Of a DNA stretch of 64,000 nt, positions 10,106 to 58,333 are shown piece after piece. This stretch comes from a virus. Taxonomy: Duplodnaviria > Heunggongvirae > Uroviricota > Caudoviricetes. Position 1 is the stretch's first letter; each line of letters begins with the position of its first letter. The position numbers were made by a program, and so were the translations under genes. Below the pieces are notes generated by a model. The model saw only the letters and a program-made list of their open reading frames with translations. It ran no database searches and was not told the origin of the DNA. Where the stretch lies: IMG/VR virus record IMGVR_UViG_3300009537_004349; one strand, written 5' to 3'.

Positions 10106-10341
10106 CGATTTGTTTGTGCTGTTTCTACCTCAATGATAGTTTGCTGTACTATTTTATTAGTTCGTTCTTCATGCAGTGCTCGAATCAAAGTGTGGTACGT
10201 TTCATCGTACCTGCCATTACTATCTTTGAACGACACACTTTTCGCGCCAATATCTCCAAGAGCCCTGGCAATCGCTGCGGCTATAGTGGACTTGCCTGAA
10301 CCGGAGCCGCCAGTGACTGTAATTTTTACCTTGTGTATCAC
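10096..10341 (-). CDS. small P-loop NTPase-like protein
   Basis: 81 aa with Walker A GGSGSGKST. Confidence 0.45.
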   Translation of the reverse strand: MIHKVKITVTGGSGSGKSTIAAAIARALGDIGAKSVSFKDSNGRYDETYHTLIRALHEERTNKIVQQTIIEVETAQTNRGP

Positions 10342-11090
10342 CAGCCGTTTCCTTTCACAGTGTAAACCTGCACCTGTTTTCTTATCTTGTTCTGTGGCTC
10401 CTGAGGAATTACTCCCAATCTAAAGAAGAATCGCCACCCAGGATTTACACAGGCCACTGCTCGATGCGGAGTGTTCTGGTCGAACTTTACAACATCTCCC
10501 TCTTGTAATTCCTTGTTGTAGAATGCAGCCTGAGAATTGAGTTGTCTATCAAGGCTGCTCCACACGTTCTCTCTATCTATAGTGAGTTCTATCTCCTCGT
10601 CAAGAAATTCTGTCTGAGAAACATTCTCAACCGTGCTAAGAATGCAGGTATAGAACTTTACATTGGGGTTAATCTTAGCTAAGTCGGGTTGTGCATACTG
10701 CTCGCACCGTGGAACCCCATCACAATGCCAACCTGGAATAGCTGGGTACATACCCTTCATTAGCATATGAGAACGAGTATCAATAATACAGTTGTACTCT
10801 ACCTCGCCCTCGCCCTCGCCCTCGACGTCCAGCTCATTGCCGTGTAGGTCTTCGACTTGTGTTCCTTTACTTTTTGCCAGACGAATCATTCTCGCTATGC
10901 CTGCCGAGCAAATGTCTGGCTCATTCTTTAGGAAGTCCAACACATAATTAGTGAGTGGGCCACCATGTTCTCTTGCGAAGTTCCAGTCAGCACTAAATAA
11001 CATAGGCTCACTATGAATTTCCTCAACCGACACCTTGGTCTCGGGAAGTCTTGCCACCACCTCTATTAGTGGATTGAAAGTATGTTTCAT
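10338..11090 (-). CDS. hypothetical protein, possible Fe(II)/2OG-oxygenase-like HxD...H site; contains an (EG)3 repeat
   Basis: Track ORF starts with TTG at 11153; first ATG at 11088-11090; WHCDG...PHRA motif; GCCCTC x3 direct repeat at 10800-10818. Confidence 0.4.
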   Translation of the reverse strand: MKHTFNPLIEVVARLPETKVSVEEIHSEPMLFSADWNFAREHGGPLTNYVLDFLKNEPDICSAGIARMIRLAKSKGTQVEDLHGNELDVEGEGEGEVEYNCIIDTRSHMLMKGMYPAIPGWHCDGVPRCEQYAQPDLAKINPNVKFYTCILSTVENVSQTEFLDEEIELTIDRENVWSSLDRQLNSQAAFYNKELQEGDVVKFDQNTPHRAVACVNPGWRFFFRLGVIPQEPQNKIRKQVQVYTVKGNGW

Positions 11091-15559: not shown

Positions 15560-15945
15560 TATCTTTCGCTTTCATGTATCAAGCACTCGTAACTTTTCTT
15601 CCAAAGCCTGCCGAATGTAAATATTGTAACCTTTTCTATTGTGCACACACCGGTAAGCTTTTCGCCCCTCTTAACCCTATTGTAGAGATTCGCCATAGCT
15701 ATTGTGTTGTGTTCTGGATATTTGTGAAAGCAATGCCACAAATCATACGCACGTGTATACTTAGGAAATATCACCATCTCACATACTAGACATAAAGCTA
15801 TCAACATCATATGCGATGCGTATAGTATCGGTTGCTCTAACGTCCAGCTGCCAGTAAATAAAAGGTTTAATCCCGGTATTAGTATGTAAACAAAACTAGT
15901 CCACCAAGCTTTGTGGATTTTTCTAAACAACTTTGCTTTTCGCAT
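15559..15945 (-). CDS. hypothetical membrane protein
   Basis: 128 aa, multiple hydrophobic helices. Confidence 0.45.
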   Translation of the reverse strand: MRKAKLFRKIHKAWWTSFVYILIPGLNLLFTGSWTLEQPILYASHMMLIALCLVCEMVIFPKYTRAYDLWHCFHKYPEHNTIAMANLYNRVKRGEKLTGVCTIEKVTIFTFGRLWKKSYECLIHESER

Positions 15946-16650: not shown

Positions 16651-17677
16651 GATTCTCCATCACAGCCCAACCAGCCTGTGGTCGGATGGTAAAGTCATCA
16701 TCTTGTGCTGCACCAACAAGCCCAGCAACGAACTTCATTTTGATATCTGTACCTAGATATTCCCATACAAACGGGACAGATGAAATACCTAGAGGAAAAT
16801 CATCTGGATTATTACCAGAGAATCCGCCACCAGTATTCCACTTCTCAACGAATGGATTCTTTCTATCGCGTACCAGGTAGGGAAACAAGGTATTCACCCA
16901 TCCAGTCACATACGGTCCACCAGAACCACCACCAATCTTGTACAGCGAACGCCAGAAGTCTTTGTCTACATTTCCCTCTGCCGACTCTTTTACTTTTTCA
17001 AGCACAGGTAGTAGATGGTCAGTCCACCACTCAAGCCCGAACTCGCTCATGTAAGAGGCTTTGTCGATTAGCTTCTGCCAATCTTCAGGCTCTCCCTCAA
17101 GAGTAATGCTTGGGAAACCACAAAGAGTTCGGCAGATATAGTCAAAGTAGTTCTGCATAGCATCCATAAGTACAACTTCAGATGCTGCCTTCTCTAACAC
17201 ACCAGTTGTGCTAAAGTTACATACGATTAGGTCTCGCTTCTTACCGATATAGTCTGATATCTTATCGCTAAACTCATCGAAGCAACCCTCCCAATCATTA
17301 TCAGGGGAGCCTTTGACGAAATGGTCTCTGCGAACAATAATCTTTTTCTTACCCTCAAAGTCTACAAATTTCTTACGTAGCTTCTCAGCGTTAAGATTGA
17401 TATGTGTTGCAAGTCCACCAGAAATCGTGAGCCAGAACGCATCAGGGGATAGGCTCAAAGGACGATGTTGGTCAAACGCCATATGAATAGCTGACAATAG
17501 ACCGTGCTTTGTATCATTGATTAGCGGTGTATTAGACCAGGCTTCAATAGGTGGCTTCTCTAGCTCACCATATAACTTTCGCTTGCCCAGCTTGTTATCT
17601 AAAATAACTTTCGTATCTACTGTGTGCAATGGCTCCGTGGCCATCTGAACATCGTCTACTTGAAACTGAATGGACAT
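16640..17677 (-). CDS. hypothetical protein (345 aa)
   Basis: Long ORF; glycine-rich segments GGGSGGP, GGGFSG; no assignable family. Confidence 0.55.
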   Translation of the reverse strand: MSIQFQVDDVQMATEPLHTVDTKVILDNKLGKRKLYGELEKPPIEAWSNTPLINDTKHGLLSAIHMAFDQHRPLSLSPDAFWLTISGGLATHINLNAEKLRKKFVDFEGKKKIIVRRDHFVKGSPDNDWEGCFDEFSDKISDYIGKKRDLIVCNFSTTGVLEKAASEVVLMDAMQNYFDYICRTLCGFPSITLEGEPEDWQKLIDKASYMSEFGLEWWTDHLLPVLEKVKESAEGNVDKDFWRSLYKIGGGSGGPYVTGWVNTLFPYLVRDRKNPFVEKWNTGGGFSGNNPDDFPLGISSVPFVWEYLGTDIKMKFVAGLVGAAQDDDFTIRPQAGWAVMENHDG

Positions 17678-17697
17678 TTGCCTACCTTTATTCGAAA

Positions 17698-17774
17698 TGG
17701 TAGGCCCGGAGGGACTCGAACCCCCAACCTGGCCGTTATGAGCGGCTCGCTCTGACCAATTGAGCTACGGGCCT
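17698..17774 (-). tRNA. tRNA-Met (anticodon CAU; elongator-type or Ile2 precursor)
   Basis: AGGCCCG acceptor, TAGCTCAATTGG D-arm, loop CTCATAA, GGTTCGAGTCC, CCA. Confidence 0.7.
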
Positions 17775-17915
17775 TTATTATTTATAGAGACTCCAGTCTT
17801 ACTTTTAGAATCTCTAATGCTTGTACAGCAGCCTCAACCTCTTGAGATGTACCAAACTCCGCTGGCTCATCCATGATTTCCTGTTGAAACTTTTCAAGCT
17901 CTTTAATTGCTTCTT

Positions 17916-18140
17916 TCATTCCACTAACTCCAACACTCTGCGCATCACCCTAGCGATGCCTTTCTTACTGCAACCATATCCACCAGACGACTCTAGCATG
18001 TCAATCACCTTGAATGCTAGTTCACCAATCACAGCATCTTCAGCAGCAGCTTTCAGGGCAGGCTTTACATCATCAGAGGCATTGGCTCTGATAACATAAT
18101 CATAAATATGCTCTTCATCACCAATCTTAGCAAACGCCAT
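17916..18140 (-). CDS. hypothetical protein
   Basis: 74-aa ORF. Confidence 0.4.
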   Translation of the reverse strand: MAFAKIGDEEHIYDYVIRANASDDVKPALKAAAEDAVIGELAFKVIDMLESSGGYGCSKKGIARVMRRVLELVE

Positions 18141-18486
18141 ATTTATTCTCCATACTCATGATATGCCTTTCGAGACGGGCAATCTCATTGTTCCATCTTT
18201 CCACTGATTGGAGGCTAATCTTAAGACTCTGTTTCATACCTCGAAGGCTTTGTCTTCGTCTCTTTACATAACACTCAATAGCTTCCTGCTTTGAAGTGAA
18301 GAAACTTCTGTTGTATTCTAATCGAATCCAGCCACTAGATGTTTTAATTCGATAACCATATGCATCTTTATTTTTGGTTTTAACCTTGTACTTGGTCATG
18401 CCATCTCCTGGGTATACAACATACATCCATTGTCCTGGTCGCAATCTCTTGTACAATTTATCTAGCTCTGTTTCTTTCTTAGCCAT
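18127..18486 (-). CDS. hypothetical protein
   Basis: 119-aa ORF. Confidence 0.45.
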   Translation of the reverse strand: MAKKETELDKLYKRLRPGQWMYVVYPGDGMTKYKVKTKNKDAYGYRIKTSSGWIRLEYNRSFFTSKQEAIECYVKRRRQSLRGMKQSLKISLQSVERWNNEIARLERHIMSMENKYGVC

Positions 18487-18701
18487 CTTAGGTCTTCCTT
18501 GATATCTTCTAGATTGGCATTAACTATCTCAGGCTTAGCACTAATTATCAATCTTTTATCTAGGTCTAATCCTCTAATAGCCTCTCTTATTCTTCGCTTA
18601 ACCTTATTCCTCACTACTGCTTTCTTGCTCACCTTCTTGCTCACCCGAATCCACACTTTGTCCTTGGAGTCTTTTGAGAAATAGATTTTCATGTTCTTCA
18701 T
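18462..18701 (-). CDS. rnpA: ribonuclease P protein component (RnpA-like, short form)
   Basis: VSKKVSKKAVVRNKVKRRIREAIR matches the RnpA RNR motif (A-x-x-R-N-x-x-K-R-x-x-R); downstream ...ISAKPEI...L..DL..L also RnpA-like. Confidence 0.65.
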   Translation of the reverse strand: MKNMKIYFSKDSKDKVWIRVSKKVSKKAVVRNKVKRRIREAIRGLDLDKRLIISAKPEIVNANLEDIKEDLRWLRKKQS

Positions 18702-18936
18702 TTTCCCAATCCTTTATAGACTCAGAGTGCCTCTTTAGGGTATCGAAGTGCTTACCATTAGCAATCTTCTCAAAGACTTCACGAGGCAAGCGGACTGTCA
18801 CTCGTTGACCATCAAACTCCCATTGTGGTTTGCCCAGCTGGAGGTAGATAGCATCAGGCTCCATGCACTCTAGATACAGATGAAAATCGGTATCATCATC
18901 TGCATTCTTGTATTCCACGGTAACCTTGGTGCTCAT
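18604..18936 (-). CDS. hypothetical acidic protein
   Basis: 110-aa ORF. Confidence 0.45.
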   Translation of the reverse strand: MSTKVTVEYKNADDDTDFHLYLECMEPDAIYLQLGKPQWEFDGQRVTVRLPREVFEKIANGKHFDTLKRHSESIKDWENEEHENLFLKRLQGQSVDSGEQEGEQESSSEE

Positions 18937-18937
18937 A

Positions 18938-19540
18938 CTACTCTCCTTGCACTACCACATGGGTAATATTGCCCTGGTCATCTAGTCGGACATAACCACG
19001 GAGTTGGTCATCGAAAGGCTCACAGTCGAAACCATACCCCATGACATCATCAAAGTCATCTGCCGGGTCAAGGTCAGAATCTCGCTCGCTGGAAGTAAAC
19101 CAGTTAGACAAGTCAGTCGTCTCAGCAAATTGTGCATCAGTAAGTGGCGACGTAAACTCTGCATCGAGTGCAGGGCGGTTGTTCGCACACCAATCTACTA
19201 TAGCCTGACGGCAAGTGTTGTAAAGTGCTACTCGTTCAAGTGCACCAGGCCCAGGCCCGGTCGAAGCTGGGACAGAATCATCATCCTCTGTATCAACCTC
19301 GTCGCCTGTATCTGTGGGCATTACAAAGGGAGTATCGTGAGAAATCCCAGCAATGTGCAGATGAGCAGCATAAACCTCAAAGCTTTCTCTCATATAGGGC
19401 TGGAAGTCATCCAAAGCCTCGACCGCATCTTCTCGTGTGAAAAATACTCGGTCATCATGAATTCTTGTCTCGTTAGGCAGCGAACCATCTCCTGGCTTTG
19501 CTGCAATCACATAAATCTCGTGTGCTACACCATTAGGCAT
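18938..19540 (-). CDS. hypothetical acidic protein
   Basis: 200-aa ORF. Confidence 0.5.
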   Translation of the reverse strand: MPNGVAHEIYVIAAKPGDGSLPNETRIHDDRVFFTREDAVEALDDFQPYMRESFEVYAAHLHIAGISHDTPFVMPTDTGDEVDTEDDDSVPASTGPGPGALERVALYNTCRQAIVDWCANNRPALDAEFTSPLTDAQFAETTDLSNWFTSSERDSDLDPADDFDDVMGYGFDCEPFDDQLRGYVRLDDQGNITHVVVQGE

Positions 19541-19955
19541 CTTTATTTTCCTTTTTAGTTAATACCTTGTAAAAACCAGAAATATCTTTTAGCTCCACGT
19601 TCCATCGCCCGTTCTTGTATTCGAGGGATTCACCAACTTTAATGAACCCTCCACTTTCCCAGGCCCATGAGACATACATGGAGCTATCACATGACACATA
19701 GTATCCTTCTTTTGCCAGAGCAATAGCTATCGCTAATCTCTTGGTAAAGTTCCATGCTAGTGTCCATCCAACAAAATAAAACACTCTGTTTTCACCTGAC
19801 GACACGGCACGTTTAATGTCGCTTTCCACCTTTGCCAGCTTTTTCTGGAGCCATAGTGGACGCTCCTCTACCATAGCCTCGGCTTTCTCGATCATATCAC
19901 TATACTTTACGCCGTAAGCTTTCAGTAAAGTATGTGCGTCAGATGCATTTAGCAT
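19533..19955 (-). CDS. hypothetical protein
   Basis: 140-aa ORF. Confidence 0.5.
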   Translation of the reverse strand: MLNASDAHTLLKAYGVKYSDMIEKAEAMVEERPLWLQKKLAKVESDIKRAVSSGENRVFYFVGWTLAWNFTKRLAIAIALAKEGYYVSCDSSMYVSWAWESGGFIKVGESLEYKNGRWNVELKDISGFYKVLTKKENKDA

Positions 19956-20165
19956 TTACTTAACCTCTCTTGCCACCCAGTTATGATTCTTCCACTGGTT
20001 AAATTGCTCTTTAGTCACAGCTATAAGAGTGGCACCGTCACAATTTCTGGCTGTGATAAACTCTTCGTCTCCATTACTCTTAACTCTGTAGAAAGCATAA
20101 AGCGGCGTACTATCAATTCCGGTATAGCCATACCTAGATTCGTCTAATACAACCTTAACGCTCAT
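19956..20165 (-). CDS. hypothetical protein
   Basis: 69-aa ORF. Confidence 0.45.
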   Translation of the reverse strand: MSVKVVLDESRYGYTGIDSTPLYAFYRVKSNGDEEFITARNCDGATLIAVTKEQFNQWKNHNWVAREVK

Positions 20166-20766
20166 CAGCCATTAGCTTTTCTACAATGTTATACACGCCA
20201 GGATTCAATTCCTTAATCCTGGGCACTAACTCGTGCCTGATATAGTTCCTCTTGTACTTTGTGTCTACATTAGATGGGTCTTCTACCCAGTTATAACCAT
20301 GCCAGTTCATGTAGTTTTCGATATCTTCCCGCTTCCACAAACGGAATGGCCGAATACAATTTTTGTTACTGTATTTAATGGTACCAGGATATCCTCGAAC
20401 CATCGTACACATGATGTACTCTTCCAAGCAATCATCGAAGTTGTGGGCAAGAATAACCGGCTCTGAAAAACTATGAAAGAAGTTGTACCTCTTCTCTCTC
20501 CACCAAGCCTCCCTAGATTCCCCCTTTGGTGGCTCCTCTTCTAAGATGTGCCACTTGCAAGTAACGCCGTAGTATTCCTTCATAGACAGCACAAAATCAT
20601 ATGCCTCGTCAGAATACAGCCCTGTCTTGTGGTTTACATGTAGCATTCCCAAGAGATTATCTTTCCTTGACTCTTTGTAGAGCCAATGAAATGCTGCCAT
20701 GCTATCGATACCACCACTCACAGCAACCCAATACTTTTTAGGCAATGGATGTGTCAGTCTGAACAT
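20155..20766 (-). CDS. tilS: tRNA(Ile)-lysidine synthetase-like PP-loop ATPase (TilS N-terminal domain)
   Basis: VAVSGGIDS PP-loop, HVNHKTG and AHNFDDCLE motifs as in the TilS catalytic domain. Confidence 0.65.
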   Translation of the reverse strand: MFRLTHPLPKKYWVAVSGGIDSMAAFHWLYKESRKDNLLGMLHVNHKTGLYSDEAYDFVLSMKEYYGVTCKWHILEEEPPKGESREAWWREKRYNFFHSFSEPVILAHNFDDCLEEYIMCTMVRGYPGTIKYSNKNCIRPFRLWKREDIENYMNWHGYNWVEDPSNVDTKYKRNYIRHELVPRIKELNPGVYNIVEKLMADER

Positions 20767-20954
20767 AGTTGTTCACCAAGTCTTCTTAGAGTTCTAAGAT
20801 AACCAGGGAGCCGCATCGCCTTTTCCTGAACAATATTAGCTCCCATGCCACCGAATCCTTTATCTAGTCTCACCTTAGCTGCGTATGCCCTATAAGCATC
20901 TCGCACTTCAACTTGACATCTTTTAAGAATCCGTTCCTCTTGTTGCTTGTCCAT
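20754..20954 (-). CDS. hypothetical protein
   Basis: 66-aa ORF. Confidence 0.4.
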   Translation of the reverse strand: MDKQQEERILKRCQVEVRDAYRAYAAKVRLDKGFGGMGANIVQEKAMRLPGYLRTLRRLGEQLCSD

Positions 20955-21345
20955 CTTCTACTGCCTGCTTAATCAAATCTGGTGGAAGCACATCATCCAC
21001 TGCTACCACATCGTAAAAACGAAGGGATGTAAGTTCGTATAGTTTTTCGAATTGCTCATCAGTTAGACCGCTGAGATTGAGTTCATAGTGGTCATTTGTG
21101 TCAATACCGAGACTATCTAAGAAGTCTACCATGCCACCCGCATCAATTTCATCTAGGCCATAACAATACTGACCAATTTCGTTTCTCTTCAACTCCTCGA
21201 TATTCTTCTTCTGACAGTACAAATTAGCCAGCTTCTTGTCATGAAAAACTTTTACAGGCTCACCATTACTACCACCTTGGTTGTTGTAGTATACTTCATC
21301 GTTATACTCGAACCCAATCCTAACTAGGACGTACATCGTGCTCAT
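20923..21345 (-). CDS. hypothetical protein
   Basis: 140-aa ORF. Confidence 0.5.
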   Translation of the reverse strand: MSTMYVLVRIGFEYNDEVYYNNQGGSNGEPVKVFHDKKLANLYCQKKNIEELKRNEIGQYCYGLDEIDAGGMVDFLDSLGIDTNDHYELNLSGLTDEQFEKLYELTSLRFYDVVAVDDVLPPDLIKQAVEDGQATRGTDS

Positions 21346-21748
21346 CTTCTTGTTCCTTTCTTACTAACTTGGCCAGCTTCTCTACGAAAAACTTAGGAAA
21401 CGAAAACCACGCTTGCCTATCCAGGTGCTCATAGTAATCATTCAGAGACGGAATCCAGCCCAAATCTTCCTTGATATGTTGTTCGGCGATGTCCCTCACC
21501 TGTACTTTATTACCATCGCTGTTGGTAATATAGGTCGTCTTTATAATTGTTCCATCTTGCTTCTGAATAAAATCACCAAAAGCTTTTTCAACTATGAAAC
21601 ATCCAAAAGCATGATGTAATGCTGCTCTGTGTCTAGCATCAGCCATTACAGCCTTTGAAGAGTCCATAAAGTTGTGAATCTCGATATAGTCTTCAGGTAT
21701 GCCTCCCCATAGCTTGGCACTGTTTCTTGCGTGCCTGTATGGTTTCAT
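21320..21748 (-). CDS. hypothetical protein
   Basis: 142-aa ORF. Confidence 0.5.
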   Translation of the reverse strand: MKPYRHARNSAKLWGGIPEDYIEIHNFMDSSKAVMADARHRAALHHAFGCFIVEKAFGDFIQKQDGTIIKTTYITNSDGNKVQVRDIAEQHIKEDLGWIPSLNDYYEHLDRQAWFSFPKFFVEKLAKLVRKEQEDEHDVRPS

Positions 21749-22158
21749 ATTGGCAACTCCTCCACTACAAGCTTGGCAATCTCTGCATCAGACAGGGACT
21801 TGATAGAGTCCTTATTCCCCCCTCTAATTTTCACGAGAATGTCCCTGCAAATCTCTGGGGTAAGAGCCTCGGCACCAAATTCTTGATTAAACATCTCTAC
21901 TCTGGACCAATCAGGAGCCTCTACTAGATTCTCTACATCCAGGTCACACAGGTTTCTTATAGCCATCAACATTACGTGTTCTACATAATGCCTATCACAC
22001 ACGGGGATGCTTAGTTGTCCCTTGAACATCAGCCGATTATTCACGCCACCTTCGCAGGCTGAACCCATATTCCATACACAAGTTAATGGGCTCGTGTCTT
22101 CACCGTCTTTTCTTTTTTCTATGTTCTGTGAAAGAAAGACTGCACTTTCTTTAATCAT
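21745..22158 (-). CDS. hypothetical protein
   Basis: 137-aa ORF. Confidence 0.5.
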   Translation of the reverse strand: MIKESAVFLSQNIEKRKDGEDTSPLTCVWNMGSACEGGVNNRLMFKGQLSIPVCDRHYVEHVMLMAIRNLCDLDVENLVEAPDWSRVEMFNQEFGAEALTPEICRDILVKIRGGNKDSIKSLSDAEIAKLVVEELPI

Positions 22159-22268
22159 CGTCGTCTCTTTTCCTACACTTAAGTTTATCTTGTTCCTTCT
22201 TTTTATTTTTAATAGGGCCAGCAGAATTGCGAAACCACGCTATCACTGCGCCCCAATCACGAGGCTTT

Positions 22269-22472
22269 CTAGCTTTGGTCTGCTTCTTTTGCTTTTTCCT
22301 CCGCTTTCCTTTTGACATTTTTGATACCCTCGTTTAGATTGCCGAGAAAGACACCAGCGGTTCGTCCTAGAAACTCTACATAGGTCTCCTCATAAGCAGG
22401 ATCGTTGTATGTCTTGAAACTCCAGTATCCCAGAGTAAACATGCCAACACCAATCACAAGCCATTCTAGCAT
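22269..22472 (-). CDS. hypothetical small membrane protein
   Basis: 67 aa with N-terminal TM helix. Confidence 0.4.
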   Translation of the reverse strand: MLEWLVIGVGMFTLGYWSFKTYNDPAYEETYVEFLGRTAGVFLGNLNEGIKNVKRKAEEKAKEADQS

Positions 22473-22825
22473 TTCTTCTTGCCCCTTTTCTTTCTAATAA
22501 CTTTAGTCCTTTTAGTAGGTTTTTCTCTTAGGTCCATAGTTGCTCGGGCTAGCAGCACAACCAATTTGCCCTGTTCGATTTTATCCTCGTACAACTTACC
22601 TAAGTATTTCTTTTCCTCTTGAACGAATTTCTGATACAGCTTTTCATCTTCCCAGCCGTTGTTAGATATGGCCACAAAAGTTTTAACCAGAGCCTCAGGA
22701 AATTTCTTACGCTGTTGTTCGTTAGTTTCAGGCTCATAGTTTGTGGACTTAGGTATCCTGCTCCTGCGTTTTCGTCTTTTCTTTTTGGGCATAAATCCTA
22801 ACCTTACCTGATAAAATATCCACAA
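22466..22825 (-). CDS. hypothetical basic protein
   Basis: 119 aa, K/R-rich termini. Confidence 0.45.
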   Translation of the reverse strand: MWIFYQVRLGFMPKKKRRKRRSRIPKSTNYEPETNEQQRKKFPEALVKTFVAISNNGWEDEKLYQKFVQEEKKYLGKLYEDKIEQGKLVVLLARATMDLREKPTKRTKVIRKKRGKKKC

Positions 22826-23023
22826 ACTCTTGTAGACTTATTATTCGTTTTATGCTTCCACTAAAGCTCCACTTCTCAAACTCTGTACGTTCATTAAGGG
22901 AAAAACTCTTACCATCCTTAAAAATGGCGCAACCCAACTCATCAATGGTGCGTTTCAAACAAAGCACATCGCAATAGATTGTAAAAATATAATCGGGAAC
23001 GCCAACAGGATTTTTGTTTAGCT

Positions 23024-23097
23024 TGGCTGGGGAAGAAGGACTCGAACCCTCACTACTTGGGCCAGAACCAAGCGGCCTGCCATTAGCCGATTCCCCA
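23024..23097 (-). tRNA. tRNA-Gln (anticodon CUG)
   Basis: TGGGGAA acceptor, anticodon arm CTTGG-TTCTGGC-CCAAG, GGTTCGAGTCC, CCA. Confidence 0.65.
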
Positions 23098-23334
23098 TTT
23101 TGATTTAGAATAGCCATATGAAAGTAAATGTTAGAGACCATCTATTTAAGTCATAGCTTCTGGCATCAGCACAAATACTCGTTGAATTATCTGACCAACA
23201 TGGATGAGCAAATGCATGTATCATCCATATGTCTTTATTCAAGAACCTTACAATAGGATGCACAGGCTTGGGCGGTAATTTTGGCGGAGGATCAAATGGT
23301 CCACATAGCATCATAGCTATCACCGCCGCCTTTA

Positions 23335-23592
23335 TCATTTGTCTACGTATTCAACTACATTATCCAGGAAGTGCAAAACAGTTTTCTTAATAAACTCTTT
23401 AGACATGCATTCGGTATAGCACACTACCTTATCACCCTCTTTGACGAAACCAAACTCGCCAAAGCCTACACCTTTTGCTCCCCACTGCAATAGGAAGCCG
23501 CCGTCATTATGTGGGTGTTTGTCCCAAGTTTGTAATTCGGTATAAACAAACTCTGGATTTTCTCTTGCCGCCTTGAGTTCTTCAGGCGTCAT
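23335..23592 (-). CDS. hypothetical protein (start at Met43 after the tRNA)
   Basis: Track ORF 23335..23718 begins inside tRNA-Gln; ATG at 23590-23592. Confidence 0.45.
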   Translation of the reverse strand: MTPEELKAARENPEFVYTELQTWDKHPHNDGGFLLQWGAKGVGFGEFGFVKEGDKVVCYTECMSKEFIKKTVLHFLDNVVEYVDK

Positions 23593-23606
23593 ATCGAATA
23601 ACGATT

Positions 23607-23680
23607 TGGCTGAGGAGGAAGGACTCGAACCCTCATTACCTGGGCCAAAACCAGGCGTCCTGCCATTAGACGACTCCTCA
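23607..23680 (-). tRNA. tRNA-Gln (anticodon UUG)
   Basis: TGAGGAG acceptor, anticodon arm CCTGG-TTTTGGC-CCAGG, GGTTCGAGTCC, CCA; paralogous to the 23024 tRNA. Confidence 0.65.
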
Positions 23681-23698
23681 TCGGGTTGTTGAGGACCG

Positions 23699-23890
23699 TC
23701 ACTTTGATTGCCAGTCATGATAAGCTCTCCATTCTTCGCTACTTTTCCACTTCTGACCTATATCAGTGTGTAGAAACTCAGCAAATTTTTCAATAAAACC
23801 AGGCTGATGGAACAGTTCGTCAAAGCCTCTGTGAAATCTAGAGGCCCAAAACAAATCGTGCTGAATTTTTAGTAGTTCCACCCGTCTCAT
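23699..23890 (-). CDS. hypothetical protein
   Basis: 63-aa ORF. Confidence 0.4.
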   Translation of the reverse strand: MRRVELLKIQHDLFWASRFHRGFDELFHQPGFIEKFAEFLHTDIGQKWKSSEEWRAYHDWQSK

Positions 23891-23927
23891 ATTTGTTATT
23901 ATACCTGGTTAGTCTCCATCGTCAAGT

Positions 23928-24302
23928 TCATTTTGTCATTTGGGCTCGTGCTTTGATGTATTCCATTAAAGGGATAACATTAACATGCTTTTTGAACCAC
24001 TCGTTTCTTAGTCTCAAGACCTCTTGAGAAAGCTCGGCAGATGGCTCTACTCCTAATTGCTTGGCTACATTCACGGGATTTAATCCACTGTATTTGCTCA
24101 CTGCCCATAAGGGATGAACAATCCTACGTGCCATTGTGGTAGCCCAGCTAAGACTATTCCAGAAAAACTTACCTCGCATTTGTACGGGCTTGCCATCTAC
24201 CAGAACAATGTATCTGCCCTCAGGATTAAACTTTGAGAAGTTATATCGGGCAGCCTTGTTAATAAGTTTCTTTACTTCCAGTTCTTGTTCTTCAGTAAGC
24301 AT
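23928..24302 (-). CDS. hypothetical protein
   Basis: 124-aa ORF. Confidence 0.5.
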   Translation of the reverse strand: MLTEEQELEVKKLINKAARYNFSKFNPEGRYIVLVDGKPVQMRGKFFWNSLSWATTMARRIVHPLWAVSKYSGLNPVNVAKQLGVEPSAELSQEVLRLRNEWFKKHVNVIPLMEYIKARAQMTK

Positions 24303-24832: not shown

Positions 24833-25240
24833 ATCTCGGAGTAAGCCTGTAAGCTGGATTCTGTCTAGTGCAATCATTCATCTAGGCTTACCATTACTGA
24901 TAAGCTCAAGCCTCTTACCCGCCAGCACATCGAGCCAATGTATAGCTGGTCTATTTTGAGTTGCAACACCTAGAGTTTAGCCGTTTCACCCTTGTTACTT
25001 ACCTGGGGCAGTACCTTCCACAACTAGTGAGAGCGGCCATCCCCTTATAGGCTCTCAGGGTTTTATTGGTTGTAACAAGACTCGTCTCTGTTCCACTAGT
25101 CCTCACCTCACGGTGGATGGGCGTTACCCACTAGGTTGCTCTGTGTTGTCCAGACTTTCCTCTGCATAGCCACAAGCTAAAGTTTTCAGTGGCGGCGGAC
25201 GCAAGCTCCTTGTATGCAGCGATTGCACGGATTACTCCGT
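24833..25240 (-). ncRNA. rnpB: RNase P RNA, bacterial type-A-like (rnpB)
   Basis: Minus strand carries conserved RNase P blocks in order: AGGAAAGTCTGGAC, GGGTAACGCC, ACAGAGA...AACC, GATGGCC, CAGGTAAG...GGGTGAAA, GGCTAAACTC, CAAAATAG, GGGTAAGAGGCTTGAGC, CCTAGATGAATGA, ACAGAATCCAGCTTA. P1 pairing CGGAGTAA (25232-25239) with TTACTCCG (24837-24844). No ORF at or above the 60-aa track cutoff across this 365-bp gap. Confidence 0.75.
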
Positions 25241-45206: not shown

Positions 45207-45231
45207 TTTATTTTTATTGGGCGGTTAGCCG

Positions 45232-45308
45232 CGCCCCGGGTGGGATTCGAACCCACGACATGCAGGGTTTTAGAGACCCCAGCTCTAACCAGACTGAGCT
45301 ACCGGGGC
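45232..45308 (-). tRNA. amber-suppressor-type tRNA (anticodon CUA), isotype unknown; no encoded CCA
   Basis: Reverse complement GCCCCGG-TA-GCTC-AGTCTGGTTA-GAGC-T-GGGGT-CTCTAAA-ACCCT-GCATGTC-GTGGG-TTCGAAT-CCCAC-CCGGGGC-G. Anticodon loop is 7 nt with U33, C34-U35-A36 and A37. Discriminator is followed by CGG rather than CCA. Flanks extend the acceptor complementarity to 9-10 bp. Confidence 0.6.
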
Positions 45309-46579: not shown

Positions 46580-46836
46580 GGTTTATTTCCTTTGCTTATC
46601 TGAAACCAGTGCTGCTCCATTTTCTTTAGAAACTCTTTGTCAAATGAAACCAGCTTATCTGGCAACACAGAATCTATACCACACTTAGGGCACAGAGCGG
46701 TTTGACCACCATCGCACCACTCATATATCTCAGTGGGGCTATAGATACGGCAGCAACAGAAGCAGCCACAGGTTTCACTCTCCATGACTGCTTCTAAATG
46801 ATAGCTGCTGTGTTCGTGTGCTTCAATGATATCCAT
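46576..46836 (-). CDS. hypothetical Cys-rich zinc-ribbon-like protein
   Basis: 86 aa; CGCFCCC...CDGG...CPKC. Confidence 0.45.
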   Translation of the reverse strand: MDIIEAHEHSSYHLEAVMESETCGCFCCCRIYSPTEIYEWCDGGQTALCPKCGIDSVLPDKLVSFDKEFLKKMEQHWFQISKGNKP

Positions 46837-47942
46837 TAGATGATGTCCACGTGATTGATGTCCAACCAGTCTTCCAGCGCCTTGATATTCATCTCGGCTA
46901 GATACTGCCGTACACTCTGCACCTTTCCATGCTTGAGGGAAAACAACGCCCCGGAGTACTTGGAGTCCTTGACTTTCATAGCGAACTGCTTCTTGTCATC
47001 GATATCCTTAACCATCTCATACATACCCTCGATGATACCGCGAGTATAGTCAAACTTTCCTCGCACTTCGGCATACAAAGATGCATACTCGGGATAATCC
47101 TCTAGATAAGAAGAAAACTCTTCGTTCTCATTATCCAGCATGACCTTGAGAATCTCTCTCGCAGGCACAGTGGACATCTTATCCTTGAAGCGAGATAGCG
47201 CTACATACTGCGGGGTCTTAACCTTCACACGATTATAGTTCCCATCGGCGACTACAAACCCTTCGCTCTCTAGAGGGTCCAGCTTCTTAGACGCCTCCAT
47301 AATGTCTTCCCAAGTCTCCAGCGAATGAATCTCCACGCACTCCCAGCCATTATGGTGGGCCACTACGATGGGGTTTACTTCGCTAAAGTCGGACAAATTA
47401 CGAGCGCCGTGTAGAACGATACGATTACGTGCATGCTTAACAACTACCCTGTTATAGGGAGTCATCAACTCAAACATATAGCACATGTTCTTGTTATCTG
47501 GCAAGTCATACTCTAGTTGCTCCCAAACCTTCCAAAACAGGTCGGCGAAAGACAATTCGGAGTTTAGAACATTACCAGCAGCATCAGGCATACCCGAGCT
47601 GGACACATGCCACTTGTTGTCGTAATGGTACAGCGTCATGAGAGAGCCATCTAGTTTCTCATAGACACGAGCGGAGCCCCAGTCTAAGTCCGCTGCGTTA
47701 GATTCTCCATAGTTGAAGAACTTATCGTAGGGATAAGATACAACGGCCCAATCATTTGCCTCATCTAAGATGATTCCTCGTGCCTGCTGTACGATTGGAG
47801 AGTTCATGGGCGAATCAATCTGATTGTACTTAAACAACACCAGATTATCATACACACCGTGGCGCTTTGCTGTTACGGCAAAGCGATTTTCCAACTCCTT
47901 GACTCCATGGTCACGGATGAAGTTCCTTAGTTGCTGGGCCAT
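46836..47942 (-). CDS. rnlA: RNA ligase, T4 Rnl1 family
   Basis: ARGIILDE...YPYDKFFNYGE and nucleotidyltransferase motif I VYEKLDGSLM (KxDG) aligned to T4 Rnl1 RGIMFEMDG...PMEKFFNLNE / TKEDGSLV. Confidence 0.7.
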   Translation of the reverse strand: MAQQLRNFIRDHGVKELENRFAVTAKRHGVYDNLVLFKYNQIDSPMNSPIVQQARGIILDEANDWAVVSYPYDKFFNYGESNAADLDWGSARVYEKLDGSLMTLYHYDNKWHVSSSGMPDAAGNVLNSELSFADLFWKVWEQLEYDLPDNKNMCYMFELMTPYNRVVVKHARNRIVLHGARNLSDFSEVNPIVVAHHNGWECVEIHSLETWEDIMEASKKLDPLESEGFVVADGNYNRVKVKTPQYVALSRFKDKMSTVPAREILKVMLDNENEEFSSYLEDYPEYASLYAEVRGKFDYTRGIIEGMYEMVKDIDDKKQFAMKVKDSKYSGALFSLKHGKVQSVRQYLAEMNIKALEDWLDINHVDII

Positions 47943-48631: not shown

Positions 48632-48707
48632 TGGTCCCGAGTGCTGGGTTCGAACCAGCGACCTTTCGAATATGAGTCGAATGCTCTACCAACTGAGCTA
48701 ACTCGGG
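48632..48707 (-). tRNA. tRNA with anticodon CAU (Met or lysidine-modified Ile2), C1-G72 acceptor
   Basis: CCCGAGT acceptor, TAGCTCAGTTGG D-arm, anticodon arm TTCGA-CTCATAT-TCGAA, GGTTCGAACCC, CCA. Confidence 0.65.
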
Positions 48708-49607: not shown

Positions 49608-50200
49608 TATTCTTCCCTCGGTGTCATGTCTTCAGGCAGGAACCAATGTTTGGTTCCCTTATTGATATTGTACGAAACATATTCATCTTCTTCTTCGTCG
49701 TATTCGTACCATGGATTCTCGTTCACACTGATAGCATGCAGGCACACAGCATATACATTCATATCATCAATGTATGCTCTAATATCTCTGGCCCATGATT
49801 GAAGGTGGCATACGACTTGAGGGTTCTTGTAATCATTGTAAAATGACTCTAAACTATCCGCAAGTTTTTCAAAGTACTTACGACTAACCATAGCATTGTC
49901 ATAGGAAAAGTATAAGGTAAACAATTCCCACTCTTTAAGAGACCTCCTGAATGCCTCATCGTCTCTTACCTTGTCCCACAATTTGCCCCATGCTTCAGAG
50001 CCATGATAGCCGTAATCGTCCTTGATATCGTATCTCTTGCACATAGCATTCCAAATGAATGCTACACCACCGTGGGCATTACGATACTCTTTATCTTCAT
50101 GAACATCGCCTGCAATATCTACGGTGCATAATGCACAATAACTCATGTCGTTCCTTTCGACTGGTAGGCCCGGGTGGATTTGAACCACCGACCTTCCCAT
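49607..50200 (-). CDS. hypothetical protein
   Basis: 197-aa ORF. Confidence 0.5.
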   Translation of the reverse strand: MGRSVVQIHPGLPVERNDMSYCALCTVDIAGDVHEDKEYRNAHGGVAFIWNAMCKRYDIKDDYGYHGSEAWGKLWDKVRDDEAFRRSLKEWELFTLYFSYDNAMVSRKYFEKLADSLESFYNDYKNPQVVCHLQSWARDIRAYIDDMNVYAVCLHAISVNENPWYEYDEEEDEYVSYNINKGTKHWFLPEDMTPREE

Positions 50201-50237
50201 TATCAGTGGGATGCTCTGCCAGCTGAGCTACGGGCCT
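50162..50237 (-). tRNA. tRNA-Ile (anticodon GAU)
   Basis: AGGCCCG acceptor, TAGCTCAGCTGG D-arm, anticodon arm TCCCA-CTGATAA-TGGGA, GGTTCAAATCC, CCA. Confidence 0.7.
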
Positions 50238-50994: not shown

Positions 50995-51070
50995 TGGTGC
51001 GCCGGGTAGGATTCGAACCTACAACTTCACGCTAATCAGGCGTGCGCTCTCCCAGTTGAACTACCAGCGC
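50995..51070 (-). tRNA. tRNA with anticodon loop CTGATTA (reads as GAU/Ile but with U37); isotype uncertain
   Basis: GCGCTGG acceptor, anticodon arm CACGC-CTGATTA-GCGTG, GGTTCGAATCC, CCA. Confidence 0.55.
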
Positions 51071-56048: not shown

Positions 56049-56430
56049 TAGCCTCCCGCTTCATCTCTGAGAGAAACTTTACAGCCTCGTCTTTATCCTT
56101 AATGCAAGCTGACACTCTGTCTGTACTACCATTCGTTCTCTCTTGAACAACATAATAGCAATCATCCCAAGCATCCATGTGAAATACGTTTGTCAATCTT
56201 GCGGGAGGTTCATCTGGAACCAATACATTATACGAAACGATACTGGACGCCAAAATAAAAGCCAGTCCTACAAGGGCGGACACCACCTGCGCGCCTTCGC
56301 TTTCGCAATAGCTCTCCCACATTCTGCTGACACCAAAAATAGGACGGGGTTTTTCTTTCAACTGCCTCTTAAGGTCAGCGTTTTCTTGTTCAAGCTTGTC
56401 AATCAGTTTGGTCAGTATCTCGTCGCTCAT
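56029..56430 (-). CDS. hypothetical membrane protein
   Basis: 133 aa, central TM helix. Confidence 0.45.
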   Translation of the reverse strand: MSDEILTKLIDKLEQENADLKRQLKEKPRPIFGVSRMWESYCESEGAQVVSALVGLAFILASSIVSYNVLVPDEPPARLTNVFHMDAWDDCYYVVQERTNGSTDRVSACIKDKDEAVKFLSEMKREASENDSR

Positions 56431-58333
56431 TGATATACTTCCACATGTCTTCCAGTTCTATTGTGAAGCCCCCGGAAAGAATCGGGAACCTACACCAGCT
56501 TTTTGGGTCAAGGTTCTTATCATCTACATGGAACGACGGAGCATATCGCTCTCTCTTCCATTGGTTTCTAGACCATAGTCTAAAGAACTTCTCAATCCAA
56601 ACGCCTAATTGATTATCGTCAAACTTGCCCCTTAATGTCTTAAACACTTCGAGAGGCGGCTTCTTATCTCTAATAGCCAGACCTTCAATCGTATCAAGCA
56701 AATCATACGGCATAAGGTCTGATTCATCGTGCTGATTATACTTCTCTGGTCTTAATTCTGCGGTGGGCTTTTGTTCGATAACCAAGTCGAGTGACTTCCA
56801 AACGAACTCATTTCGTACCCACACCAACCACTTAAGCAGAAAATCCTTATCAATCCCTGCCAGTGGACTTAAGCCACCACAAGTATCTCCATCCATAGTT
56901 GCGTACCCAACAGCTGCCTCAGAACGATTACTTGTAGCCAATAAGATAGCGTTATTCAAGTTTGCTACCATCCAAGCGCTTGGTGCTCGTGCTCGTGCTT
57001 GAATGTTCTGCATGGTGATATCATCAGTATCCCAGCTTAGCTCGCGACCGATAGCTCTCTCGACTCTAGCTGTATACATCTCCACCATTGCATCTACATC
57101 CAGCTCCATATAATCAGCGCCGAGTTCCTCAGCTACAGCTCTTGCTGCGTTCTGAGTTATGGTAGTACTATGTCGTGTGGGCTGGTAAATGCAAGTAAGG
57201 AACGCTCTTGTAGCAGTATACTTAAGCTTCCTTTCAAAGGCGTCTTTGTAATCCTTTCTTCCATAGTAGGGAATAAGTCTTACCAAACATGCTGCTGCTG
57301 TAGAATCTGCGCCCCCGCTAAGTGAGACAACAAATCCATTCGACCTTGTTTTGCGCATGTAATCAAACATACCCAAGCACATTGCGCGTGTGAACTCTTC
57401 GAACTCTGAAGCAAGCTCTGTGCTAATAGGTGCAGAAGGTTCCGCATCAGTTAACGGAGACTCAGCTCCCAGAATATCTTCAAAGTTATAGGCTCCTTGA
57501 AGATTTGGCTGATACGAACCCAGTCTCATTCTGTTCTGAGTATTGATGTCCAGGTCAACTACTGCTGTGGTTAGCTGCCCACTGTTATAGCTGAACCTAT
57601 CACCGTTTGCTACCACAACACCATTGTTGGCGATGATAGTATCACCATCATAAATGGTTCGTCCAGACTCATTGCCAAGCAGATTGCAGTAAACATAAGC
57701 TACATTAAGAGAGCGTGAACCCTCTTCCACAATCCGCAACCTGTTTTTGTGCTTGCCGAATGCAAAATGGCTTGCACTGGGATTAAGGATTACCTCAACA
57801 CCATCAGAGGCTAATTTAGCTCCCACTCTATTTGCTGCCCAAGCATCTTCACAAATCTCAAATCCAATCTTGACGCCGCCGAAATCGAATCTTAAGTCAC
57901 CAATCTGAGTATCCAACTCATTGTGATACTCGGTAACCCCGATAGGCCAAGGCTTGAACCAACGATGTTCATAATGCACACCATCATTAGCGAGATGCTT
58001 CTTGGGTACAAGACCAGCAATCTCCCCATTGGATAGCACTGCTACACAGTTGTACAGTGCTCCCTTGTGCAACACTGGCAGACCCACACACACAAACATA
58101 TCTGTAGCTGCTGATGCTACTGGCTCAAGATATGAATAAGCTCTCTTGATTAGTGATGGGGAATGGAATTGGTCCTCGCATCCATAGCCAGTAATGCAAA
58201 GCTCAGGCAAGCAAAGGATTCTTACATCCTCCTCTTTAGCCCTTTGAATAGCGTAATAAACATTGTTTAGATTGTTTTGCCAATCCAGAGGAGTTTGGTT
58301 TAGTGCTGCTGCCCCGAGCTTTACTCTTCGCAT
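56399..58333 (-). CDS. nadE: glutamine-dependent NAD+ synthetase (N-terminal nitrilase/CN-hydrolase domain + C-terminal PP-loop NAD synthase domain)
   Basis: LCLPELCITGY and FEICEDAW (CN-hydrolase E/K/C triad context); VVSLSGGADSTAAA PP-loop. Confidence 0.85.
   Translation of the reverse strand: MRRVKLGAAALNQTPLDWQNNLNNVYYAIQRAKEEDVRILCLPELCITGYGCEDQFHSPSLIKRAYSYLEPVASAATDMFVCVGLPVLHKGALYNCVAVLSNGEIAGLVPKKHLANDGVHYEHRWFKPWPIGVTEYHNELDTQIGDLRFDFGGVKIGFEICEDAWAANRVGAKLASDGVEVILNPSASHFAFGKHKNRLRIVEEGSRSLNVAYVYCNLLGNESGRTIYDGDTIIANNGVVVANGDRFSYNSGQLTTAVVDLDINTQNRMRLGSYQPNLQGAYNFEDILGAESPLTDAEPSAPISTELASEFEEFTRAMCLGMFDYMRKTRSNGFVVSLSGGADSTAAACLVRLIPYYGRKDYKDAFERKLKYTATRAFLTCIYQPTRHSTTITQNAARAVAEELGADYMELDVDAMVEMYTARVERAIGRELSWDTDDITMQNIQARARAPSAWMVANLNNAILLATSNRSEAAVGYATMDGDTCGGLSPLAGIDKDFLLKWLVWVRNEFVWKSLDLVIEQKPTAELRPEKYNQHDESDLMPYDLLDTIEGLAIRDKKPPLEVFKTLRGKFDDNQLGVWIEKFFRLWSRNQWKRERYAPSFHVDDKNLDPKSWCRFPILSGGFTIELEDMWKYINERRDTDQTD

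Follow-up and report, generated by a model that had tools for sequence, protein, structure and literature searches.

Phage TilS-like proteins reduced to the catalytic domain: a tRNA-rich viral locus with a predicted tRNA-Ile2 partner

Enzymology recognizes only two types of tRNA(Ile)-lysidine synthetase (TilS), and both have domains appended to a PP-loop catalytic domain. Type I enzymes (E. coli MesJ, 1NI5; Geobacillus kaustophilus TilS with bound tRNA, 3A2K; B. cenocepacia TilS) are 430 to 500 amino acids (aa) long and carry two C-terminal domains, CTD1 and CTD2, reading base pairs 3:70, 4:69, and 5:68 from up to 60 Å. Type II enzymes (Aquifex aeolicus, 1WY5/2E21/2E89; Mycobacterium smegmatis), of about 300 to 317 aa, do without the acceptor-stem-reading CTD2 and keep a CTD1 of ~100 residues along the anticodon stem. 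In current TilS enzymology, these appended domains are the means of telling tRNA-Ile2 from the tRNA-Met with the same anticodon, and discrimination by type II enzymes has been described as an open question (PMC11947777). Here, we examine a 64,000-nucleotide (nt) stretch of DNA (the window) from a virus of the class Caudoviricetes (IMG/VR record IMGVR_UViG_3300009537_004349), in which a gene at positions 20155 to 20766 encodes a TilS-like protein. It shares the catalytic N-domain of type I enzymes and the same domain and motifs of type II enzymes, and presumably the chemistry as well, adenylation of C34 followed by lysine transfer. Like type II TilS it is without CTD2, but it ends at residue 203 and so has no counterpart of CTD1 either. 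Archaeal TiaS (agmatidine synthetase) reaches the same outcome, a C34 of tRNA-Ile2 modified to read AUA rather than AUG, with an unrelated fold and chemistry, and is not a homolog.

Viral precedents exist for both the tRNA and the enzyme. Phage-borne tRNA-Ile(CAU) has been known since T4 and is conserved in T4-like phages (PMC1524935); it carries signatures for isoleucyl-tRNA synthetase (IleRS) and serves Ile/AUA after lysidinylation. The T4-like phage paper reports no phage TilS (PMC1524935), whereas the phage in the window encodes its own enzyme. In a vibriophage, the phage's own tRNA(CAU) was found to carry lysidine (k2C34), and there the phage tRNAs are thought to be modified by host enzymes (reviewed in PMC13191261). 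For the putative TilS of chloroviruses and giant viruses, it has been proposed that the synthase raises AUA decoding for AU-rich viral genes; the Dasosvirus TilS, which was among our Foldseek matches, is a 696-aa protein from a eukaryotic virus. The putative TilS proteins of the Pseudomonas jumbo phages PA5oct (gp37) and MIJ3 (gp263), of the genus Wroclawvirus, have the same architecture of ~200 aa as the window protein and are annotated tilS, while the window shows no DNA similarity to either genome. A MIJ3-type genome has three CAU tRNAs 5 to 10 kb from tilS. The MIJ3 paper describes its putative TilS as "not reported in phages" and assigns the CAU tRNAs to tRNA-Met; where it discusses TilS, it makes no link to those tRNAs and does not mention missing domains.

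The original prediction, made from the letters of the window without database searches, was that this open reading frame (ORF) encodes a 203-aa PP-loop protein with the TilS motifs VAVSGGIDS, HVNHKTG, and AHNFDDCLE and without C-terminal tRNA-binding domains. The ORF is present as described, on the minus strand, with all three motifs. The protein matches Pfam ATP_bind_3 (PF01171; E = 4.7e-32) over model positions 2 to 182 of 182, and the NCBIfam model lysidine_TilS_N (TIGR02432) over positions 1 to 189 of 189 at 114.8 bits, above the cutoff of 93.6. The equivalog model for full-length, E. coli-type TilS (NF007942) stays below its cutoff (57.8 versus 606 bits) because only the N-terminal half of the model is matched (positions 18 to 206 of 439). 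When the protein was compared with PDB sequences, the significant matches were TilS N-domains only (1wy5, 3a2k, and 1ni5; E values from 3e-13 to 4e-9), the best being the A. aeolicus type II enzyme (E = 3.3e-13), and the sole other rows were LarE at an E value of about 0.1. Chance does not account for TilS matches of this strength.

Conservation within the family follows the catalytic domain. The PP-loop SGGxDS (S17-G-G-I-D-S22 in the window protein) is kept in at least 90% of 38 family members, and the further N-domain motifs HxNH, RxxRY, AHxxDDxxE, RP, EDxSN, and RNxIR align to 1wy5, 3a2k, and 1ni5. Residues H46, R90, R93, Y94, H108, D112, E115, R173, and R177 are invariant across the 38 members; T48, W89, N188, and G190 are also invariant but specific to this clade, differing from canonical TilS. 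An AlphaFold2 model built with the 38 homologs as input has a mean predicted local distance difference test (pLDDT) value of 94.9, and its best Foldseek matches are the TilS structures 1ni5, 2e21, 1wy5, and 3a2k (query TM-score, 0.77 to 0.84; 0.82 to 0.84 for the A. aeolicus type II enzyme). The next group, TtuA/NcsA thiolases, ranks below all TilS, and LarE and PAPS reductase are only distant. QueC appears in the fold search of viral structures as a remote match (E of at least 2e-4), and the matches listed for the two fold searches include neither MnmA nor GuaA. The protein therefore groups with TilS, by TIGR02432 and by fold, rather than with the QueC/MnmA/GuaA-type enzymes that might have displaced the initial assignment. 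Identity as an Fe-S thiolase of the TtcA/TtuA/NcsA kind was rejected as well: there is no CxxC, and the only cysteines (C70, C113, C119, and C137) are not invariant.

The C-terminal shortening is as predicted. No Pfam or NCBIfam model of a TilS C-terminal domain matches the 203-aa protein, and the chain ends 4 to 10 residues past the last N-domain motif. We rejected a split gene or partner domain, since none of the seven ORFs flanking tilS has a match to a TilS C-domain or to any other tRNA-binding Pfam family; among the relatives, the only conserved Pfam-bearing partners found near tilS are DUF6915, on the upstream side, and RnpA, on the downstream side. Since the ~200-aa length recurs in all 80 viral loci, and in nearly every one of the best 150 cluster representatives described below, the gene is not a truncated pseudogene. 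Judged by sequence, then, the 203-aa protein is a TilS reduced to its catalytic domain, with catalysis predicted. Coordinates of this gene and of the other features discussed are collected in Table 1.

TABLE 1 The tilS-like gene and associated RNA and protein genes in the window
Feature	Position	Strand	Description
tilS-like gene	20155..20766	-	203 aa; TilS N-terminal PP-loop catalytic domain only, without CTD1/CTD2
tRNA(CAU) no. 1	17698..17774	-	Predicted tRNA-Ile2; CCA encoded; 2.4 kb downstream of tilS, same strand
tRNA(CAU) no. 2	48632..48707	-	Probable elongator tRNA-Met; not a predicted TilS substrate
tRNA-Ile(GAU) copy a	50162..50237	-	Major Ile tRNA; seven acceptor pairs and discriminator identical to tRNA(CAU) no. 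1
RnpA-like RNase P protein gene	18462..18701	-	79 aa; PF00825; between tilS and the predicted tRNA-Ile2
RNase P RNA, bacterial class A	24834..25238	-	Full-length; RF00010, 209.5 bits (gathering threshold, 100), model 1-367 of 367; 4 kb upstream of tilS

The short form is not peculiar to this window. A word-indexed search returned 159 homologs, nearly all of the 120 listed being about 180 to 245 aa long, and a HMMER search of 1.84 billion cluster representatives gave 5,266 matches at E of 1e-10 or lower, of which the best 150 are almost all about 180 to 250 aa. Relatives are encoded on at least 504 IMG/VR viral contigs, and a protein identical to that of the window is recorded on a JGI (Joint Genome Institute) contig of 291.7 kb. 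We fetched 80 viral loci with 10-kb flanks (related loci are numbered from L001 onward), and in all 80 the ORF is 191 to 236 aa long and ends a median of 4 residues beyond the match. Cellular relatives are built differently. Among the 80 best relatives on bacterial and archaeal contigs, sampled at one genome per species, only four contigs of metagenome-assembled genomes (MAGs) have the short form; the other 76 (L090 to L165) have C-terminal tails of 93 to 262 aa, save two ORFs cut by contig ends, and correspond to type II (about 300 aa) or type I (about 440 to 465 aa). Short tilS genes in cellular MAG contigs are probably mis-binned phage DNA. Two contigs with a short tilS are labeled archaeal, a 177-kb contig of a "Promethearchaeota archaeon" (P0028) and a 6.5-kb contig of "Altiarchaeales" (L086); their products are 47 to 57% identical to the window protein and most likely represent jumbo-phage rather than archaeal TilS.

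Cultured phages also belong here: PA5oct, MIJ3, and nine related Pseudomonas jumbo phages have a homolog of the same size, 36.6% identical to the window protein over its full length, with some records annotating it as tilS and others as "hypothetical". By sequence comparison, the ~200-aa clade is thus large and essentially restricted to viruses, and the window gene is one more member. The basic gene call is not new: tilS is the name given to such genes in JGI and GenBank annotation, and the MIJ3 paper flags one. A search of the literature (subscription-only papers lay outside its scope) turned up no account of a TilS class without appended domains, and comparative papers on jumbo and huge phages that were consulted mention neither TilS nor RNase P. 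What appears to be undescribed is the domain-less architecture as a distinct, essentially viral class, its linkage to Ile2-type tRNAs, and the avoidance of AUA in its genes, to which we now turn.

The original prediction also held that one of two CAU-anticodon tRNAs in the window is a tRNA-Ile2 that the phage enzyme modifies. Both tRNAs were called by ARAGORN and by Rfam at exactly 17698 to 17774 and 48632 to 48707 on the minus strand. Neither is an initiator, as had been stated: there is no C1xA72, no A11-U24/G12-C23, and no set of three G-C pairs closing the anticodon stem. The first (AGGCCCG-UA-GCUC...GAGC-G-AGCCG-CUCAUAA-CGGCC-...-CGGGCCU-A-CCA) has instead A1-U72, C11-G24, and U12-A23, with C-G, C-G, and G-C at 29-41, 30-40, and 31-39. 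Its acceptor stem continues with G2-C71, G3-C70, C4-G69, and C5-G68, followed by A73, and its anticodon arm has the loop CUCAUAA and an A27xC43 mismatch.

These features fit a tRNA-Ile2. In a survey of 1,070 CAU tRNAs by Silva et al. (2006), G3/C70 points to Ile, and the Ile(CAT) class typically has C4-G69 and C5-G68 (PMC1635315); the first CAU tRNA carries these discriminators against Met and fMet, its 3-70 pair being other than C-G and its next two pairs being C4-G69 and C5-G68. The bacterial IleRS identity set comprises A73, C4-G69, U12-A23, C29-G41, A35, U36, A37, and A38 (PMC9976931), and all eight elements are present (the D-loop elements G16, U20, and U21 fall outside the comparison). 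Of the 351 pairs of tRNAs in the window, the only one with an identical 7-nt acceptor strand consists of this tRNA and the first tRNA-Ile(GAU) of Table 1. When 5,426 RefSeq E. coli genomes were searched by blastn, the annotated matches among those listed were all tRNA-Ile, and the best was a lambdoid-prophage tRNA-Ile(CAU) with the same unusual A27xC43 mismatch (the anticodon, inspected in one match, is CAU). The window tRNA is 79% identical to the prophage tRNA-Ile, compared with 73% for ileX and 70% for metT; the ileX and metT references match genes annotated tRNA-Ile and tRNA-Met at 100%. The window tRNA is also 84% identical to a CAU tRNA that lies 3.3 kb downstream of a short tilS in a related locus (L010). 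Taken together, the identity elements, the acceptor stem shared with tRNA-Ile(GAU), and the E. coli matches mark this tRNA, as read from its sequence, as Ile2-type, so that the two CAU tRNAs are not both Met, and it is the candidate substrate of the TilS-like protein.

The second CAU tRNA is likely an elongator tRNA-Met, judging from its identity elements. It has C3-G70, G4-C69, A5-U68, and the loop CUCAUAU, with U38; it is without C4-G69, C5-G68, and A38, departs from both the Ile identity set and the Ile(CAT) discriminators, and carries no initiator marks. Whole-sequence identity (72.4% to ileX and 71.4% to metT) does not separate Ile2 from Met in this case. A megablast search against the E. 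coli genomes found nothing, and blastn gave tRNA-Lys and tRNA-Thr as the best matches, the class of matches at 99% identity or more consisting of very short ones.

Across the viral clade, CAU tRNAs lie close to the short tilS more often than expected. In the de-duplicated viral loci, 13 of the 33 tRNAs within 1 kb of the gene are CAU, compared with 9.4% overall (p = 4e-6, with loci that are not fully independent). The nearest tRNA is CAU in 13 of the 46 loci having any tRNA, several of these lying 24 to 135 nt from tilS on the same strand. The adjacent CAU tRNAs (within about 1 kb, or nearest) mostly have Ile2-type acceptor stems and are never initiators, and initiator-like and G4-C69 CAU tRNAs are placed elsewhere in the same loci. 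In two loci whose proteins are 57 to 63% identical to that of the window (L083 and L084), a CAU tRNA lies 2 to 4 kb downstream of tilS, as it does here.

Codon usage provides a second line of evidence. AUA accounts for 318 of the 1,040 Ile codons (31%) in the 126 minus-strand ORFs of the window, a frequency of 17.3 per 1,000 codons, and 104 of these ORFs contain it; the published frequency in E. coli is 4.9 per 1,000, and that in B. fragilis is 16.8 (PMC12514573). Among the 10 Ile codons of the window tilS there is no AUA. The same holds, in less absolute form, in related viral loci. The short tilS of 64 distinct viral loci has 63 AUA among 760 Ile codons (8.3%), compared with 5,072 of 16,540 (30.7%) in the neighboring ORFs that form the local background, and AUA is below that background in 61 of the 64 loci (sign test, p = 5e-15). 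From the local backgrounds, 221 AUA codons would be expected where 63 are observed. With a ratio of 0.27, AUA is the most depleted single codon in viral tilS, all others falling between 0.65 and 1.43, and the depletion persists when background ORFs are restricted to those of at least 150 aa or at least 200 aa. We saw no such avoidance in 66 canonical tilS genes from cellular genomes (23.3% versus a background of 18.4%; lower in 30 of 66, p = 0.54).

The simplest reading of this purge is a bootstrap constraint, whereby the enzyme has to be translated before the capacity to decode AUA exists, and from such a constraint it would follow that host AUA decoding is limiting for these phages. Though indirect, the AUA avoidance points specifically to a role of the short proteins in AUA decoding, and the comparative data suggest that the phage probably needs the enzyme for its AUA-rich genes.

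We consider it likely that the protein works as a tRNA(Ile)-lysidine synthetase consisting of the catalytic domain alone. The gene with its family, fold, and motifs, the Ile2-type features of the tRNA, the linkage, and the codon statistics are observed directly, whereas activity, substrate, and mode of discrimination are inferred. The enzyme would be made early from the tRNA-rich region of the phage genome. Following the established chemistry of TilS, it would bind ATP through the PP-loop S17-G-G-I-D-S22, adenylate C2 of the wobble base C34 in the neighboring Ile2-type tRNA, possibly acting on host tRNA-Ile2 as well, and then transfer lysine to C34 to give lysidine. As with canonical TilS, the tRNA would be switched from methionyl-tRNA synthetase and AUG to IleRS and AUA, and the phage would gain its own means of reading AUA in addition to AUU and AUC, which its two tRNA-Ile(GAU) genes serve.

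Because both appended domains are lacking, only the anticodon arm would be available for selecting the substrate, with A38 and a 27-43 pair of non-Watson-Crick type as candidate discriminators. A38 is found in all the CAU tRNAs that we call Ile2-type. In several of these, positions 27 and 43 do not form a Watson-Crick pair, and the same is true of E. coli ileX (G-U) and of the prophage tRNA-Ile (AxC). A pyrimidine at 38 or a G4-C69 pair is seen in seven distinct CAU tRNAs that are not initiators, five of them having the pyrimidine; four of those five also have G4-C69 and are probably of the Met-elongator type, whereas the fifth (L084:12569) has an Ile2-type acceptor stem instead. As a universal discriminator, position 38 was set aside on account of exceptions in L021 and L040 (A38) and L084 (C38), and it is kept only as a working hypothesis.

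Several points weigh against an active, domain-less enzyme paired with the phage tRNA. TilS is held to need at least one appended domain, and B. cenocepacia TilS loses most of its activity when CTD2 is deleted (PMC11947777). The MIJ3 paper calls the function of its own putative TilS unknown. A CAU tRNA is present within the fetched flanks of only 19 of the 80 viral loci. The pairs G3-C70, C4-G69, and C5-G68 of the window tRNA-Ile2 candidate are those that a host type I TilS reads; the host could therefore modify this tRNA, and the phage enzyme would be partly redundant. Finally, two of the CAU tRNAs of MIJ3 (L082, LR588166.1; positions 10199 to 10275 and 10680 to 10756) have identical D, anticodon, variable, and T arms, including C27xU43, and differ in their acceptor stems, CCCUCGG (C3-G70, U4-A69) in one and GGGACUU (G3-C70, A4-U69) in the other. 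They may be a Met/Ile2 pair that arose by acceptor-stem swapping, or two copies of an Ile2-type tRNA; a domain-less enzyme could not tell the two apart.

In one alternative, the phage enzyme mainly boosts lysidinylation of host tRNA-Ile2 or, more generally, of Ile2-type tRNAs, while host TilS handles the phage tRNA as a normal substrate, the two genes being paired more loosely as AUA capacity. The phage tRNA has the pairs read by E. coli-type (4:69, 5:68) and by B. cenocepacia-type (3:70, 4:69) enzymes, T4-like phages depend on host TilS for their tRNA-Ile(CAU), and many related viral loci have a short tilS with no CAU tRNA in the 10-kb flanks. The strong enrichment of CAU tRNAs beside the short tilS, some of them co-oriented and only 24 to 135 nt away, speaks for a closer pairing, and the AUA avoidance, which implies limiting AUA decoding ahead of enzyme synthesis, fits either version. 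We regard this alternative as unlikely, although it overlaps with a dedicated enzyme-tRNA pair and the two are not mutually exclusive.

A change of chemistry or a relaxed specificity is less probable still. The enzyme might attach another amine at C34, or modify several CAU tRNAs, tRNA-Met included; in the latter case the second CAU tRNA of the window, with its U38, would serve to protect AUG decoding as a tRNA-Met resistant to the enzyme. TilS accepts 5-aminovaleramide in vitro (PMC13602947), deletion of CTD2 loosens discrimination by B. cenocepacia TilS, and T48, W89, N188, and G190 of the viral clade are unlike canonical TilS. The single anticodon arm common to the two MIJ3 tRNAs could be read in the same way, as could the contrast between the pyrimidine-38 of five of the seven tRNAs described above and the A38 of all Ile2-type ones, a pattern that L021, L040, and L084 break. 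The catalytic motifs of TilS are nevertheless kept, the equivalog-domain model is passed, and an avoidance specific to AUA indicates AUA decoding rather than an unrelated modification. We give very little credence to an inert protein or one with a role away from tRNA, whether regulatory, as proposed for B. subtilis TilS-HprT and raised by the MIJ3 authors, who cited TilS-HprT regulation of ftsH in speculating on host maintenance, or as an ATP pyrophosphatase of another substrate, in view of catalytic motifs that are invariant across a deep and diverse clade, the genomic linkage to Ile2-type tRNAs, and an AUA-specific avoidance absent from cellular tilS. Conservation of the motifs and the AUA-specific signature thus disfavor both of these last alternatives.

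A broader reading of the viral proteins is possible, though on balance we lean slightly against it as a whole. The ~200-aa proteins would form a virus-specific third class of TilS ("type III"), fully active and selecting substrates by the anticodon arm; phage translation of AUA would depend on the enzyme, with its own gene purged of AUA; and it would belong to a tRNA-maturation module of this lineage together with an RNase P ribozyme and a mini RnpA. A natural, abundant, and conserved domain-less class would be a minimal system for learning what the catalytic domain recognizes alone. The AUA purge in viral tilS indicates that AUA decoding is limiting in infection, and that the answer of these phages is an enzyme-tRNA pair of their own rather than reliance on host TilS.

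The RNase P genes of this proposed module flank tilS (Table 1). The 79-aa ORF matches PF00825 at 48.7 bits (gathering threshold, 22.3) over model positions 26 to 107 of 109, and scores 30.5 with TIGR00188, under the cutoff of 38.35. It contains the RNR motif (VSKKVSKKAVVRNKVKRRIREA) and is missing about 25 N-terminal residues of the family model. Its position relative to tilS is kept in three related loci (L166:11616-11855, L167:5673-5870, and L168:4655-4852), and one of these, a metagenomic locus whose tilS is 61% identical to that of the window, also has a syntenic RNase P RNA (L166:5688-6157, plus strand; 179.8 bits). The order in that locus is Ser-Ala-Gly-Thr tRNAs, RNase P RNA, two Gln tRNAs, tilS, and RnpA. 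The P4 helices of the two RNAs differ by compensatory changes (GUCUGGA/UCCAGC versus GUCCGGG/CCCGGC), the catalytic core being conserved and the peripheral helices divergent. With the RNase P RNA as query, blastn matched none of 50,697 phage records, no close relative of the RnpA-like ORF was found in the scan of viral contigs, and the literature search described above, with the same scope, found no description of a phage-encoded RNase P. In the 40-kb stretch around the MIJ3 tilS, no RNase P genes are annotated (annotation only; no Rfam scan was made). From these matches and their synteny, the phage appears to encode both subunits of RNase P.

The window, a fragment of a jumbo phage, is phage-like as a whole, with ORFs covering 88% of its length and 126 of 132 ORFs on one strand. 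Of 10 ORFs tested, 8 match PHROG families, among them a T4 Rnl1-type RNA ligase (46836-47942, minus strand; PF09511/phrog_562) that lies amid tRNA genes. A megablast search of positions 17000 to 24000 against the same 50,697 phage records gave no match. ARAGORN called 27 tRNA genes, all on the minus strand, and Rfam independently confirmed 26. Besides the two CAU tRNAs, the set includes two tRNA-Ile(GAU), and there is no tRNA-Ile(UAU) among the 27 ARAGORN calls. Isoleucine tRNAs are expected to have a purine at position 37 and carry t6A37 (N6-threonylcarbamoyladenosine). The second tRNA-Ile(GAU) copy (50995-51070, minus strand) has the anticodon loop CUGAUUA, with U37, and a wobble pair U5-G68; it may represent a degenerate gene copy or else have unusual properties as a tRNA.

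Other genes lie among these tRNAs. An NAD+ module (56399-58333 and 58337-59497, both on the minus strand) consists of a glutamine-dependent NAD synthase (CN_hydrolase plus NAD_synthase) and a nicotinate phosphoribosyltransferase. A tRNA with the anticodon CUA, an amber suppressor to which ARAGORN gives the label "Pyl", is present at 45231-45308 (minus strand) and recurs in related phage loci (L083:2811-2884 and L036:13291-13365). TAG is the stop codon of 22 of the 126 window ORFs, so that this region, with late genes lying outside the window, has no sign of recoding. In several related IMG/VR viral contigs (L001, e.g., 15579-15668, L002, L004, L015, L023, L025, L071, and L074), ARAGORN also called a tRNA-Ser with the unusual anticodon ACU, 3 to 7 kb from the short tilS.

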